Below are positions 13,733-64,000 of a stretch of DNA of 64,000 nucleotides, piece by piece. This DNA comes from Thermoproteota archaeon (GTDB taxonomy: Archaea > Thermoproteota > Thermoprotei > Thermofilales > B9-G17): positions 1 through 64,000 of the forward strand of contig JAPDJW010000010.1 of NCBI GenBank assembly GCA_029258885.1, given 5' to 3'. The notes below the pieces were generated by a model. It was not told the DNA's origin, searched no databases, and saw only the letters and a list, made by a program, of their open reading frames with translations. How positions within the stretch are numbered: position 1 is the stretch's first letter; each line of letters starts with the position of its first letter. The translations under genes were made by a program, and so were the position numbers.

Positions 13733-14076
13733 TGCCACGCTATATAATAAATATTAGAGATATTATGTTGATTATCGGCGGTATCCTAAACATTATAGTC
13801 GGTATTTTTTATGGAACAGCGGTTACCTCAATTTTAGAGGGTATATCTGCTGGAAGCTGTTTCAACGGAGCATACCTATTTAAAAGTGATATGAGGAAGT
13901 ATGGTATTATCGCCTTAATAGCCTCGATCATTATTTCAATAGCAATTATTCCAAACGTACTTACCGAATTCGAGGGCTTGGCAATGGAATTGGTTTCAAT
14001 AATATTAAAATCCCTTGCAGTAATTCCTGGAGAAATTAAAATAATAGAAGTTGAGGTAATTACAGAGGAAGAGTAA
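13732..14076 (+). CDS. Small polytopic membrane protein, hypothetical
   Basis: 114 aa, 3-4 hydrophobic segments; translationally coupled (TAATG) to the upstream gene. Confidence 0.55.
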   Translation: MPRYIINIRDIMLIIGGILNIIVGIFYGTAVTSILEGISAGSCFNGAYLFKSDMRKYGIIALIASIIISIAIIPNVLTEFEGLAMELVSIILKSLAVIPGEIKIIEVEVITEEE

Positions 14077-18325: not shown

Positions 18326-19062
18326 TCCTCCTCACCCCTCACAAGCATAACGAATAACTCCTCAAGATTCTTAGCACCGTGCTCTTGAAGAAGGTCAGAA
18401 ACATATCCTTCAGCAATAATCCTACCCTTATCGATTAACGCAACCCTATCGCATACCCCTTCAACCTCAAGCATATTATGACTGGACATCAGTATGGTCG
18501 TGCCGTATTCCCTGGAGAAGTTCTTAATAGTCTCCCTAACCTCTCTAGCGAAAATAACGTCCAATCCAACTGTCGGTTCATCGAGAACTGCAAGCTTAGG
18601 CTTAATCATTAAAGCCCTAGCAACCTGAACCCTCCTCTTCATACCCTTACTATAAGTCTTCATCTTATCGTGTATCTTATCGCCGAGGTCGGCAAGCTTT
18701 ATACCAAGCTCTAAAGCCTCCTCAAACCTGCTCTTATCATTCGGGAAATATATCTCCGCAACCATCTTCAGAAACTCGTACCCGGTTATATTCCTATAAG
18801 TCCCTGCATCCTCCGGCAGATAGGCGATCTTCTTCCTAAGATCAATATCAACTGTTTCAACATCCCTCCCAAGCACCTTAACCAGGCCGGAAGTTGGTGC
18901 AATTAAACCTACAATAATTCTGAAGGTGGTGGTCTTCCCTGCACCGTTAGGTCCAATTAAGCCGTATATCTCGCCTTCATCAACGTTAAACGATATACCC
19001 TTTAAAGCCTGAAACTTACCAAAATACTTAACCAAGTTAGCAACTTCAACAGCGTAGCTCAT
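18322..19062 (-). CDS. ABC transporter ATP-binding protein
   Basis: Walker A GPNGAGKTT, signature YSKGMK, LDEPT; likely start MSYAVEV at 19062 behind a GAGGTGA SD. Confidence 0.93.
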   Translation of the reverse strand: MSYAVEVANLVKYFGKFQALKGISFNVDEGEIYGLIGPNGAGKTTTFRIIVGLIAPTSGLVKVLGRDVETVDIDLRKKIAYLPEDAGTYRNITGYEFLKMVAEIYFPNDKSRFEEALELGIKLADLGDKIHDKMKTYSKGMKRRVQVARALMIKPKLAVLDEPTVGLDVIFAREVRETIKNFSREYGTTILMSSHNMLEVEGVCDRVALIDKGRIIAEGYVSDLLQEHGAKNLEELFVMLVRGEEE

Positions 19063-31296: not shown

Positions 31297-31760
31297 TAAG
31301 ATTGACATGGATCGATATCGAGAAAGCCATAGATAATGCATATAGATACTTCAAAAGTCGTGGAATAGATGTAGTGGTTGGAATATTAAGAGGAGGTGTA
31401 GTTCCAGCAATAATGCTATCTAAACGTCTAAACGTCGATCTATACGTCTTAGGCGTGAGGAGATATAGTGATTTGAAGCCTCCTCAAGTTATTAGCGATC
31501 CCGGAGTTATAACCTGTAAATGTATCGGCGATGTTAAGGATAAAACAGTATTACTAGTTGATGATTTTGCGAATACGGGTATTACTTTAAAGCTGGCCAG
31601 TAAGATTCTTTACGAGAGTAGAGTAGCTAAAGTTTACACCTACGTGGTTGTTAAGAGGGGTTTTGCTTGGGTAGATTACTACTCATTTAAATTCGATGAA
31701 TGCGTGATTTTCCCGTGGGAATATCTGGCTATACGTGAACACAAAGATAATATATCTTAG
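31293..31760 (+). CDS. Purine-type phosphoribosyltransferase
   Basis: VGILRGGVVPA, PRPP loop VLLVDDFANTGITL, VDYY, FPWE. Confidence 0.88.
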   Translation: MIRLTWIDIEKAIDNAYRYFKSRGIDVVVGILRGGVVPAIMLSKRLNVDLYVLGVRRYSDLKPPQVISDPGVITCKCIGDVKDKTVLLVDDFANTGITLKLASKILYESRVAKVYTYVVVKRGFAWVDYYSFKFDECVIFPWEYLAIREHKDNIS

Positions 31761-60462: not shown

Positions 60463-61239
60463 GGTGCTGACAACTTAAGTTTATTGGGAGGATCCGTAGC
60501 CTATAATGTATGGGCAACAAGCAACACAAGCTCTTTAGGAGACTACGGACCCCATTATGGATAATGCTCTACGCAATATATCTTTATCTCTCAGGACTAA
60601 GCCTAAGGCAAGTAGAGCGAACACTAAAGACAGCGGGAATAGATAGGAGCAGGGAAGCAGTTAGAAAATGGATACATAGGTTCGGAAGCCTAAGCCTGAA
60701 GCTACTTACACCGAAAGCTAGCAGAAGAATAGCCGTAGTCGATGAAACATGTATTAGGCTAGGACGGCAGAAAGCCTGGCTCTGGATTGCAGTAGACCCC
60801 TATAATAGGGCGTTCCTAGCCTTCCAGATAACTCCAGTACGCAACGTATGGACTGCATACAGCTTCCTAAGGAGGCTTAGGCGTAGACACGGCGTCAGGA
60901 TAGTCATTACGGATGGCGCTACCTGGTATCCCTCTGCAGCGTGTTGGGCTAGGCTTAGGCACGTAGTGCTTTCAGGCGGTATGAGGAGCTATGCTGAACG
61001 CCTCATTGAATGTTTGAAGGATAGGATGAAGGGCTTTGACGTTTGTTTCCCGCGTTTAAGCCTTAAGCGTTTTACTAGTGCTATTTCCTGGATTGGTGCC
61101 TGGCTTGCCTTCTACAATTACGTTAGAACTCATTTAAGCTTAGGTTTTCCGCCTTTAGGCTTAAAGCCGCTGGATGAGTTTGCTAGATTATGCTGGCTCG
61201 TATGTGAGGTGATGCATATTGCATAAAGTTGTCAGCACC
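60463..61239 (+). mobile_element. IS6-family insertion sequence (777 bp)
   Basis: Perfect 14-bp terminal IRs GGTGCTGACAACTT (60463..60476 and 61226..61239) enclosing the transposase; no target-site duplication seen. Confidence 0.92.
60510..61226 (+). CDS. IS6-family DDE transposase
   Basis: HTH GLSLRQV; D (VDET), D (ITDG), E (AER) triad; YN..R.H.SL. Confidence 0.92.
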   Translation: MGNKQHKLFRRLRTPLWIMLYAIYLYLSGLSLRQVERTLKTAGIDRSREAVRKWIHRFGSLSLKLLTPKASRRIAVVDETCIRLGRQKAWLWIAVDPYNRAFLAFQITPVRNVWTAYSFLRRLRRRHGVRIVITDGATWYPSAACWARLRHVVLSGGMRSYAERLIECLKDRMKGFDVCFPRLSLKRFTSAISWIGAWLAFYNYVRTHLSLGFPPLGLKPLDEFARLCWLVCEVMHIA

Positions 61240-61705: not shown

Positions 61706-61754
61706 GTGATGATTGAACTCCCCGCCTGATAATGATGAGGTTTCTGGTCGCTGA
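61706..61754 (+). ncRNA. Box C/D methylation guide sRNA
   Basis: C GTGATGA, guide TTGAACTCCCCGC, D' CTGA, spacer TA, C' ATGATGA, guide GGTTTCTGGTCG, D CTGA; all four boxes are consensus. Confidence 0.88.
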
Positions 61755-61769
61755 GAAAAATTCAGCGAC

Positions 61770-61812
61770 GTTCACACTATAAAAATAAGCTATCACAAAG
61801 ATTCGGCGGGTA
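61770..61812 (+). repeat. Left copy of 43-bp inverted repeat flanking the recombinase; contains TATA box
   Basis: GTTCACACTATAAAAATAAGCTATCACAAAGATTCGGCGGGTA; 38/43 identical to the reverse complement of 63135..63177. Confidence 0.9.
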
Positions 61813-61813
61813 C

Positions 61814-63016
61814 TTGTTGGATAGACGCCACACAACGATCCAGCGAGGCCCAGAAACAATACTAGAAAACTGGTATAGGCCAATTAAGCTCAAGACAGGG
61901 AAGATAAAGGAACTACCTCCTCCACCCGATGGTTCTAAGGAGTTTGCAGTCAAGTTCCTTGAATGGTTAAAGAGTAGAAGAGATTACTCTCCAAACTCTC
62001 TACACAGGTACCTAATAGCCCTTAGGAAGATCCTCTCTTGGCTAAATATACATGGAAAGTCCCTTGAGGAGATGACTTATGAGGACTACCTCAGAATGTA
62101 CTCCGATCTTAACGAACAAAAACTCCCCGAGAACGTTAAACTGATTCTGAAGTACCTATACGAGCTCACAGACGATGAAAAGTACCTGAAACTCTACAAC
62201 AAGATCCGGGTCAAGGAGAAGAAACAGAGAATGATTGATGTCCTCAACGAGGATCAAGTTCAGAGACTAATCGAGGCCTGTGGTAAAATCGATTTCGAGC
62301 TGAAAGTCCTAGTCGAAGTAGTCTACGAGGCTGGGGCTAGAGTAGGCGAAATCTTATCCCTGAAAAGAAAGGATATCGAGTTTGACGAGCATGGTGCTAA
62401 GATATACATAAGGAGGAGTAAGAGCGAGTTTAGAGTAGTAAGAGTAGTTCTCTATGCCACTGACTTACTAAAACTATGCGAGGGAAAAGATCCTGAAGAC
62501 TACATCTTCAGCTATGAATACAATAGATACTTAAAAAAGTTGACAAGAGCTTGGGCATTAGCAGAACTCCCACCTATCAAGAGAAAGTTCCATGTTCTAA
62601 GGCACAGCAGAGCTACCGAGCTATTAAGAAAACGCATATTCACGGAGCAGGAGATGATGAGGTGGTTCGGGTGGAAGACTAGGAAGATGATAGACGTGTA
62701 CAGCCACATCACCATGGAGGACGTGGAGGAGCGCTACCTATCACTCTACAACAGCAGTGAGCGTAAGGATTTAAGGCTGAGGAAAATCTGTACCCGCTGC
62801 GGTTTATCGATCAATGACAACTTCAATTTCTGTCCACGATGTGGCCAACCCCTGTCCTCAGAGGCCTCCCTAGAGAGGCTTTTGGAAGCTCATAAGAAGG
62901 AGAGCGAGGTGGAGGAGGCGAAGATATTACTCGACAAACTGCTCGACTTAGTGATGAGGAATCCAGAGCTTGTAAGAAATCTTCTCTCAGGAGACCTGCG
63001 GCAAGGTAAAGCTTAA
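61814..63016 (+). CDS. Tyrosine recombinase/integrase with C-terminal Zn ribbon (SNJ2-like architecture)
   Basis: R (GARVGE), K (RSKS), HxxR (HVLRHS), W (FGW), Y (VYSH); CTRCG...FCPRCG. Confidence 0.93.
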   Translation: MLDRRHTTIQRGPETILENWYRPIKLKTGKIKELPPPPDGSKEFAVKFLEWLKSRRDYSPNSLHRYLIALRKILSWLNIHGKSLEEMTYEDYLRMYSDLNEQKLPENVKLILKYLYELTDDEKYLKLYNKIRVKEKKQRMIDVLNEDQVQRLIEACGKIDFELKVLVEVVYEAGARVGEILSLKRKDIEFDEHGAKIYIRRSKSEFRVVRVVLYATDLLKLCEGKDPEDYIFSYEYNRYLKKLTRAWALAELPPIKRKFHVLRHSRATELLRKRIFTEQEMMRWFGWKTRKMIDVYSHITMEDVEERYLSLYNSSERKDLRLRKICTRCGLSINDNFNFCPRCGQPLSSEASLERLLEAHKKESEVEEAKILLDKLLDLVMRNPELVRNLLSGDLRQGKA

Positions 63017-63134
63017 CCCTATACTTGGAATCTCTCAACAGGGCTTCAATAACGTAACTCTTACCCAGCAATATACGTAGCCTATCGATTATACGCTTTA
63101 CACAGTCTATCTCCTCCGAATTTACTGTCACCAC
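62823..63134 (-). CDS. Short ORF behind the right inverted repeat, antisense to the integrase 3' end (coding status uncertain)
   Basis: GTG start immediately follows the right repeat, mirroring the integrase start; 194 nt overlap with the integrase. Confidence 0.3.
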   Translation of the reverse strand: MVTVNSEEIDCVKRIIDRLRILLGKSYVIEALLRDSKYRVKLYLAAGLLREDFLQALDSSSLSRAVCRVISSPPPPRSPSYELPKASLGRPLRTGVGHIVDRN

Positions 63135-63177
63135 TACCCGCTAAATCTTTGGGATACCTTATTTTTATAGTGTAAAC
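63135..63177 (-). repeat. Right copy of 43-bp inverted repeat; contains TATA box
   Basis: Minus strand GTTTACACTATAAAAATAAGGTATCCCAAAGATTTAGCGGGTA. Confidence 0.9.
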
Positions 63178-63316
63178 CACTGAGTCATGATCTTTATGCC
63201 CCTTACACTCTCAATTTCACATAAGTTGCTCTCTAAGTGCTTCTCTCCTATAATTTTATGCCCTCTTTCCACCTTACACCTAGGTACATCAGATCTCTAT
63301 GGTTTTTAATGTAGGC

Positions 63317-64000
63317 TTAATAAAGAACGGTTATATCTTCAGGAATACCAACGTTCTCATCGCTTGCAACTATCTGAGCATATCTATAACTAAGCCTTAG
63401 ATCTATTGGCATTCGTGTTCGTGGAGCATCAAGCATGTAAGGATAGAGTTTCGTTAACCAAAGTATGTCCCTTAGATCATTTTTTGTGAGGTCTGAGTCT
63501 TTGGGATACTCTAATGATACTTGTATGGGTCTAATTGCATGTCCGGGTACAGCGTATGGAGGTCTATGTGGGTAGTATCGCCATTTACCTGTAGTGTATA
63601 ATTGAGCTATTCTCCCAGGTTCTAGAAACCAGTATACTCCCACCTCAGGCCAAGCCCTACTAGCCTTTTCAATATTCATATATAGCCGCAATGGTGATGT
63701 CTGTTGTACTCTTACTATCTTTACATCATTAGATCCTTTATTTACTAAGACTTCGTATAGTAGTCTATGAAATCTTTTTGAATACAGGTCGGTTAGGTGT
63801 ACAACGACATTTTTACCCTTAACTTCTTTAGCTATAGAAAGAACTAATTGTATAAACTTATCCTCGCTTCCCTTATCACCTATGCTTAACATGCCTTTAG
63901 TTTCTTCATATATAAACAGTAACTTTCCATATACACTACTCTCATATTCACCCCAATTATTATACATTTGAAGTACAGCAATACCCGCTCTATATCTACC
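63317..64000 (-). CDS. Prokaryotic Argonaute, C-terminal PIWI domain (5'-truncated by window edge; probably non-catalytic)
   Basis: Frame is open to the window end (GRYRAGIAVLQMYNNWG...). PIWI-order motifs: VVHLTD, VQQTSPLRLY, PEVGVY, LYTTG, RPIQV, DILWLTKL, RMPIDL. Confidence 0.8.
   Translation of the reverse strand, partial: GRYRAGIAVLQMYNNWGEYESSVYGKLLFIYEETKGMLSIGDKGSEDKFIQLVLSIAKEVKGKNVVVHLTDLYSKRFHRLLYEVLVNKGSNDVKIVRVQQTSPLRLYMNIEKASRAWPEVGVYWFLEPGRIAQLYTTGKWRYYPHRPPYAVPGHAIRPIQVSLEYPKDSDLTKNDLRDILWLTKLYPYMLDAPRTRMPIDLRLSYRYAQIVASDENVGIPEDITVLY

Follow-up and report, generated by a model that had tools for sequence, protein, structure and literature searches.

What is a tyrosine recombinase gene doing between two inverted copies of one short sequence? 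Such a layout is found close to the right end of the window analyzed here, a stretch of 64,000 nucleotides from the genome of a Thermoproteota archaeon of the order Thermofilales (GenBank assembly GCA_029258885.1, contig JAPDJW010000010.1, positions 1 to 64,000). The original prediction, made from the sequence of this window, offered two readings of the 1.4-kb stretch, namely, a cassette that inverts itself and a new mobile element bounded by terminal inverted repeats (TIR). The analysis described below leads away from both. We consider it likely that the 1.4-kb stretch is the integrase/accessory module of an island that targets a box C/D sRNA gene, with the two inverted arms serving as co-regulated twin promoters.

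The inverted arms and their position

A repeat search of the window identified an inverted pair of 48 nt, at 61770-61817 and 63130-63177, that is 85% complementary and has 1312 nt between its arms. The two arms are identical at 41/48 positions and, in local alignment over the 43-bp core (61770..61812 vs 63135..63177), at 38/43, which is the figure given in the original prediction. A 25-nt arm probe, with at most three mismatches allowed, hit two sites in the window, namely, the two arms (0.00 expected from 100 shuffles), and a search of the whole 2.1-Mb source genome (26 contigs, 99.9% complete) detected no further copies, so that the pair in the window is the sole one. Neither arm is abutted by a direct repeat, in agreement with the original observation that there is no target site duplication (TSD).

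Both arms have the layout of a promoter. The left arm (61770..61817, plus strand) comprises the predicted integrase promoter, with a TATA box at ~61779-61786, and a conserved block that extends to the TTG start codon; the right arm (63130..63177, minus strand) comprises a predicted promoter and the conserved block ahead of a small open reading frame (ORF), and belongs to what is referred to below as the left-arm type. The TATA boxes that the original prediction placed ahead of TTG 61814 and GTG 63134 are present in both arms, at an equal distance of ~35 nt before the start codon. The interval from the TATA box to the start codon contains, in each arm, a conserved 20-nt block of the type GTATC-N-AAAGA-N5-GCGGG; archaeal repressors typically act in this part of a promoter. 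The proposal that the arms are two inward-facing promoters holds because of comparative evidence, that is, the recurrence of the arm motif as a pair in five elements and the conservation of the antisense small ORF. From their sequence position and conservation, we infer that the arms function as promoters/operators. Abutting the right arm is a degenerate half-site, ACCACTGA (63176..63183, plus strand; a weak sequence reading), at the place that is occupied, next to other arms, by half-sites of the GTCGCTGA type.

The proposed target: a box C/D sRNA gene

Upstream of the left arm lies a box C/D sRNA gene (61706..61754, plus strand), in which the C box (61706-61712), the D' box (61726-61729), the C' box (61733-61738), the D guide (61739-61750, plus strand) and the D box (61751-61754, plus strand) are all readable. 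In addition to these four boxes, the gene has two guides of ~12 nt that can pair with rRNA: for each guide, there is an 11-nt complementary stretch within the 23S rRNA gene (C3:69313-72455), the one for the first guide being exact and located at C3:70008 and the one for the second guide at 70189, 181 nt away. The Rfam model snoPyro_CD matches the sRNA with 30.4 bits (E = 0.0034), under the gathering score. Thus, the upstream C/D sRNA of the original prediction is borne out by the boxes, both 23S guide matches and the sub-threshold Rfam score. The same sRNA, with an identical 15-mer end, is present in 29 of the 41 genomes of the order. The DNA on the 3' side of the D box is genome-specific and unrelated, unless the sRNA is followed by an integrase module or by what remains of one, and unoccupied sRNA genes were found in other genera only.

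The last 15 nt of the sRNA (61740-61754, plus strand) form the putative attachment core. The homology between elements begins at the sRNA D guide, 30 nt to the left of the left arm. Between the D guide and the first codon of the integrase, loci L022 and L006 hardly differ from the window, even though their integrases are only 84% and 76% identical, respectively, to that of the window. The sRNA end is also part of a perfect 8-7-8 dyad (61747..61769, not assigned to a strand) that consists of GTCGCTGA, a 7-nt spacer and TCAGCGAC; the left half coincides with the sRNA end (on the D box), and the right half is element sequence. The two halves are putative core-type binding sites of the integrase. 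L022 and L006 contain almost the same dyad, and in L016 it is flipped.

A probable island bounded by direct repeats

The sRNA tail is covered by one copy of a 21-nt direct repeat (attL; 61741..61761, plus strand), the partner of which (attR) is located past the window, at C7 70415-70435, and matches at 19/21 positions; none of the 2000 shuffles of the 9.4 kb downstream gave an equal match. These repeats probably delimit an island of ~8.7 kb (C7 ~61740 to 70435), the right flank of which continues into housekeeping genes. Given that attL and attR differ at 2 of the 21 positions, the insertion may be old or inactive. The attR repeat is preceded by a second dyad-like site, and when attR is joined to attL, as in attP, four GTCGCTGA-type half-sites follow each other at 7-nt spacing.

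The arrangement of attL and attR, with one repeat inside the 3' end of the RNA gene, is shared by a second element, on G008 C17, where the sRNA gene, at 13792, is intact, the partner repeat is located 17.6 kb away, at 31410, and the integrase gene is found immediately within the right end. The right-end structure, with a P arm before the repeat, recurs at G008 C17:31410 and in G041 C24, and G042 C10 contains an attP-like junction in which both arms are ~70 nt apart. Decayed remnants, consisting of att and the first integrase codons, are present in several other genomes.

The site is polymorphic between strains: in two other samples, contigs match the left flank and continue through the sRNA, diverge one base past the D box, and enter another occupant rather than the right flank. 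Neither a clean empty site nor an excised circle was recovered by synteny, metagenome pattern scan or IMG/VR search. The flank proteins and flank DNA of the window and G008 C17 elements have no counterparts beside the sRNA in 30 other genomes, and flank synteny is not conserved between genera; the metagenome pattern scan for an empty site returned an unrelated contig only, and the right-flank protein lookup returned the occupied arrangement only. In IMG/VR, there was no free viral or plasmid form, as judged by the att pattern and by close integrases. GC content does not distinguish the island.

Integrase, convergent small gene and cargo

The integrase gene (61814..63016, plus strand; TTG start) encodes a protein of 400 aa that consists of a SAM-like N-terminal domain, the catalytic domain, a C-terminal Cys4 zinc ribbon and a helical tail; in the profile search, the catalytic domain matched Phage_integrase with E = 3e-19, and the N-terminal SAM-like domain and the C-terminal zinc ribbon were recognized as well. 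The catalytic R-K-HxxR-W-Y set, which the original prediction had described as intact, is indeed so: all six residues (R176, K203, H260, R263, W287, and Y296), together with the four cysteines, are invariant in 26 homologues, and the protein has the complete R-K-H-R-[H/W]-Y set of the integrases of RNA-gene-targeting integrative elements. In locus L066 (~90-130), a 69%-identical integrase is preceded by another upstream dyad (GACGAA, spacer, TTCGTC type), without the sRNA core, which suggests a target-specificity switch inside this integrase family.

The small ORF (62823..63134, minus strand; GTG start, 103 aa) is convergent with the integrase gene. Its conserved core spans approximately the first 55 codons, from 63134 to ~62970, and the remainder runs antisense over the 3' end of the integrase gene. 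A core of ~50 residues is common to 9 loci, among which the nucleotide differences at codon positions 1, 2, and 3 number 488, 232, and 628. Because of this conservation and of the coding-type pattern across codon positions, the antisense ORF that was noted earlier from GTG 63134 can be considered a real, codon-constrained gene. The predicted structure of the product contains four helices (pLDDT 82.7). No family match was found in Pfam, PADLOC, NCBIfam, PHROG or Atlas, and the four-helix model produced no PDB match at E ≤ 0.001. The small protein is probably a regulator or a directionality factor. A ribbon-helix-helix fold, which was considered as a candidate, is unsupported by the all-helical model. 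The helical tail of the integrase (LLDKLLDLVMRNPELVRNLL, 62940-63016) resembles, by eye, the core of the small ORF (63020-63090), the common pattern being LL-x-D-P/S-x-x-R-x-L; mimicry or a shared interaction motif would be a possible explanation of this likeness.

The first cargo gene of the island encodes the Argonaute neighbor named in the original prediction, which turns out to be a short pAgo (450 aa; minus strand). The 3' part of this gene lies in the window (63317..64000), and the gene extends to position 64669 of the contig. The protein matches the PADLOC pAgo model PDLC02436 with E = 1.5e-39, over positions 32-447 of 460, and has no Pfam match. The pAgo gene (L025 5318-6670, minus strand) is followed by same-strand ORFs of 180, 98, and 432 aa that match no family, apart from a weak AAA/GajA-like match; together, these genes are a candidate short-pAgo defense operon carried as island cargo. 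Elsewhere, the cargo consists of Eco57I-type restriction-modification (RM) genes, ThiF/HNH genes or SLFN/methylase genes, and, by tblastx, the elements have nothing in common beyond att, the integrase and the small ORF; in other words, a constant att-integrase module is associated with variable cargo. No plasmid or virus hallmark genes were detected in the island cargo.

The arms in related elements

Examination of related elements suggests how the likeness between the two arms in the window came about. The original prediction had proposed searching homologous integrases for flanking inverted repeats. Such repeats do exist: in the window, L022, G008-C17 (the same as L092), L065, and L094/L095, which count as five independent elements, arms with the same motif form an inverted pair around the integrase gene and the small ORF. 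The integrases of the other four are 54-84% identical to that of the window, but the close match between the arms does not extend to the relatives. In L022, G008-C17, and L065, the arms of a pair are identical at 32-36/48 positions (67-75%) vs 41/48 in the window, and no right arm is detectable in G008 C23, although the module there is intact.

The right arm of the window matches the left arms of other elements at 39-42/48 positions and their right arms at 31-37/48 positions. This state is shared by L093 (79% identical), in which the right arm (~1290-1340) is likewise of the left-arm type. The right arms of the window and L093 carry CTATAAAAA and CAAAGAT, and right arms elsewhere carry CTATTTAAA and GAAAGAGG. 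The arm sequences suggest that conversion has taken place between the two arms of this sub-lineage. Because the right arms of the window and L093 are of the left-arm type, the high identity of the arms can be attributed to lineage-specific homogenization. The evidence thus points to an exchange of arm sequence in the window lineage that a pure operator model does not require.

Proposed mechanism and alternative explanations

According to the reading that we favor, the module is located at the left end of the ~8.7-kb island, which would be set in the 3' end of the 23S-targeting box C/D sRNA gene. The recombination site of the integrase would be based on the 15 nt at the sRNA end (D guide and D box), with the enzyme presumably binding GTCGCTGA-type half-sites and exchanging strands inside the 15-21-nt identity segment. 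Integration would leave a complete sRNA gene at attL and duplicate the sRNA tail at attR. The position of the crossover within the GTTTCTG stretch is hinted at by L094, given that this locus retains only the first 8 nt of the core. The island would use the sRNA tail in the way others use tRNA genes. The arms would be matched promoter/operator arms rather than recombination sites; one arm would drive the integrase and the other one the convergent small helical protein, such that a single factor could switch the integrase and its partner gene together. The two transcripts are predicted to converge and overlap.

The arms could be viewed, instead, as the sites that the integrase recombines, which would flip the integrase gene together with the small ORF and change which neighbor, the sRNA or the pAgo unit, reads into the segment. 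This self-inverting switch, the principal claim of the original prediction, is compatible with several observations: the window arms are inverted and unusually alike (38/43), each abuts a GTCGCTGA-like half-site, and the right arms of the window and L093 are of the left-arm type, as after an exchange of arms. Inversion of DNA between inverted sites is, moreover, within the capability of tyrosine recombinases (PMC8371274). Nevertheless, the arm pairs elsewhere are only 67-75% alike and G008 C23 is without a right arm; unmatched arms in relatives argue against inversion sites, which would be kept matched. Tyrosine recombinases require matching overlap regions, whereas the spacers next to the left and right arms bear no relation to each other. 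The gene order is constant: in each of the five loci with the att core and both genes, it is the integrase, never the small ORF, that adjoins the core. A 3.7-kb contig from another sample spans the right arm in the reference orientation, and no strand-changing (inverted) joint at the arms was found in the Logan contigs of four metagenome runs, a contig-level check that can miss minor forms. Furthermore, a TATA box and a start codon would accompany each gene in either orientation, so that inversion would be without obvious output. The switch is unsupported and, in our assessment, very unlikely.

The original prediction alternatively considered a 1.4-kb TIR-bounded transposon with the tyrosine recombinase acting as the transposase. 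Inverted repeats do lie at both ends of the recombinase gene, and the integrase homologues are found in differing gene neighborhoods, many of them on metagenome contigs of 1.4-1.7 kb. However, there is one copy in the 99.9% complete genome, the depth of the module in the source run equals that of the flanks (16), no TSD is present, and the homology does not stop at the left arm but reaches the sRNA core, 30 nt past it. The short metagenome contigs were examined as possible IS-like units, and this candidate was rejected: the two contigs that were inspected do not end in the arms. The mobility is accounted for by the direct repeats, which are 8.7 and 17.6 kb apart. No copies with exact arm ends and a TSD were found, and neither were several copies per genome or population; this explanation is unsupported, and we regard it as extremely unlikely.

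A further possibility is that the arms and the adjacent half-sites are accessory integrase-binding or recombination sites, at which the att cassette or the whole element body is flipped. Relative to the integrase gene, the ~52-bp att cassette, which contains the core identical to the sRNA end, has one orientation in the window, L022, and L006 and the opposite one in G008-C17 and L065 (L057 (G008 C17) 18520-18700 and L065 2380-2460; cf. window 61739-61812). In the elements with the flipped cassette, the integrase is located at attR, not at attL, and the types of the flanking arms are the same in both groups. The attP-like junction in G042 C10, with the arms ~70 nt apart, is also consistent with such rearrangement. 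These differences, however, lie between distant elements and not within one population, homologous recombination or independent rearrangement would give the same outcome, and conservation of the P-arm half-sites does not extend to L065 and L088. We consider this explanation to be unlikely. Its stronger form, in which the arms are true substrates of the integrase and inversion of the att cassette or element body is coupled to the expression of the integrase and its partner, appears unlikely as well, and slightly more so; if true, it would describe an integration-plus-inversion system on a C/D sRNA gene and would explain why the integrase is found at attL or at attR.

Relationships with known systems

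The closest known systems are archaeal integrative elements with non-partitioning (pNOB8-type or Xer-like) tyrosine integrases, which target the 3' part of tRNA genes (PMC8371274). The island in the window resembles these elements in that the integrase gene is beside the att site, the direct repeats cover the 3' end of a small stable RNA, the RNA gene remains intact, the cargo is variable, and decayed and tandem remnants are present at the site. The differences are that the target here is a box C/D methylation-guide sRNA gene, that a Cys4 zinc ribbon is present at the C-terminus of the integrase, and that a convergent small ORF shares the promoter/operator arm of the integrase. Targets of the sRNA, snoRNA or non-coding RNA kind are absent from the text of the 2021 review of archaeal tyrosine recombinases (PMC8371274), and a full-text literature search found no paper that links a box C/D sRNA to an integrase.

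Integration into small RNA genes is known for bacterial phages and islands, which use ssrA/tmRNA and the ffs 4.5S RNA gene (PMC12540744). In these cases, as in the island described here, the attB site is part of a gene for a small non-coding RNA, and the gene is restored by an identity segment; unlike the bacterial cases, the host is an archaeon, the RNA belongs to another class, and the identity extends over ~15-21 nt that cover the guide and the D box.

Among invertible switches, the familiar examples are fimS with FimB/FimE and the Bacteroides invertons. In the invertible region of phiCh1, inversion is driven by the recombinase Int1 (cited in PMC8371274). Inverted repeats that flank a segment with, or beside, a tyrosine recombinase gene are common to these switches and the window. 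Here, in contrast, one orientation was seen in the contigs, the arms diverge between relatives, each arm would be, as its sequence suggests, the promoter of its own gene, and there are separate att sites in the form of direct repeats. Inversions in Thermococcales that are driven by the pTN3 integrase, an SSV-type Int, involve identical segments of at least 104 bp (PMC5495485). This is another case of an archaeal integrase tied to inversions between repeats and might explain the flipped att cassette; unlike the SSV-type enzyme with its identical segments of at least 104 bp, the system in the window is known from sequence alone.

Should the favored reading be correct, archaeal mobile islands would insert not only into tRNA genes but also into genes for box C/D guide RNAs. 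For hyperthermophilic Thermoprotei, this would define a compact and recognizable module, in which a zinc-ribbon integrase and a small convergent gene, with their twin promoter arms, are combined with a 15-nt core from the sRNA. The module would ferry defense cargo, such as short pAgo and RM systems, between genomes; it is also a possible thermostable tool for site-specific integration. The striking inverted repeat around the recombinase gene would then be a case in which shared promoters provide a better explanation than a switch.

Additional features of the flanks and the right end

An IS-type DDE transposase gene (60510-61226), with DDE_Tnp_IS240 and IS66-like matches, separates the sRNA from the host ABC transporter genes. 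In each of the four metagenome runs, contig depth over 60510-61226 is higher than in the flanks by a factor of 5-10, and the assembly breaks there, so that this is a multi-copy IS.

Just inside the right end of the island, there is a fragment of a proteasome subunit gene (C7 69906-70214; L025 11907-12215) that corresponds to profile positions 108-188 of 189. A contig from run X3 has 12 nt in place of C7 69350-70372. Directly to the right of attR (C7 70441-71134; L025 12442-13135, minus strand), a gene for a ribbon-helix-helix protein of 87 aa overlaps an ORF of 147 aa without an assigned family, a pair that looks like a toxin-antitoxin-type module.
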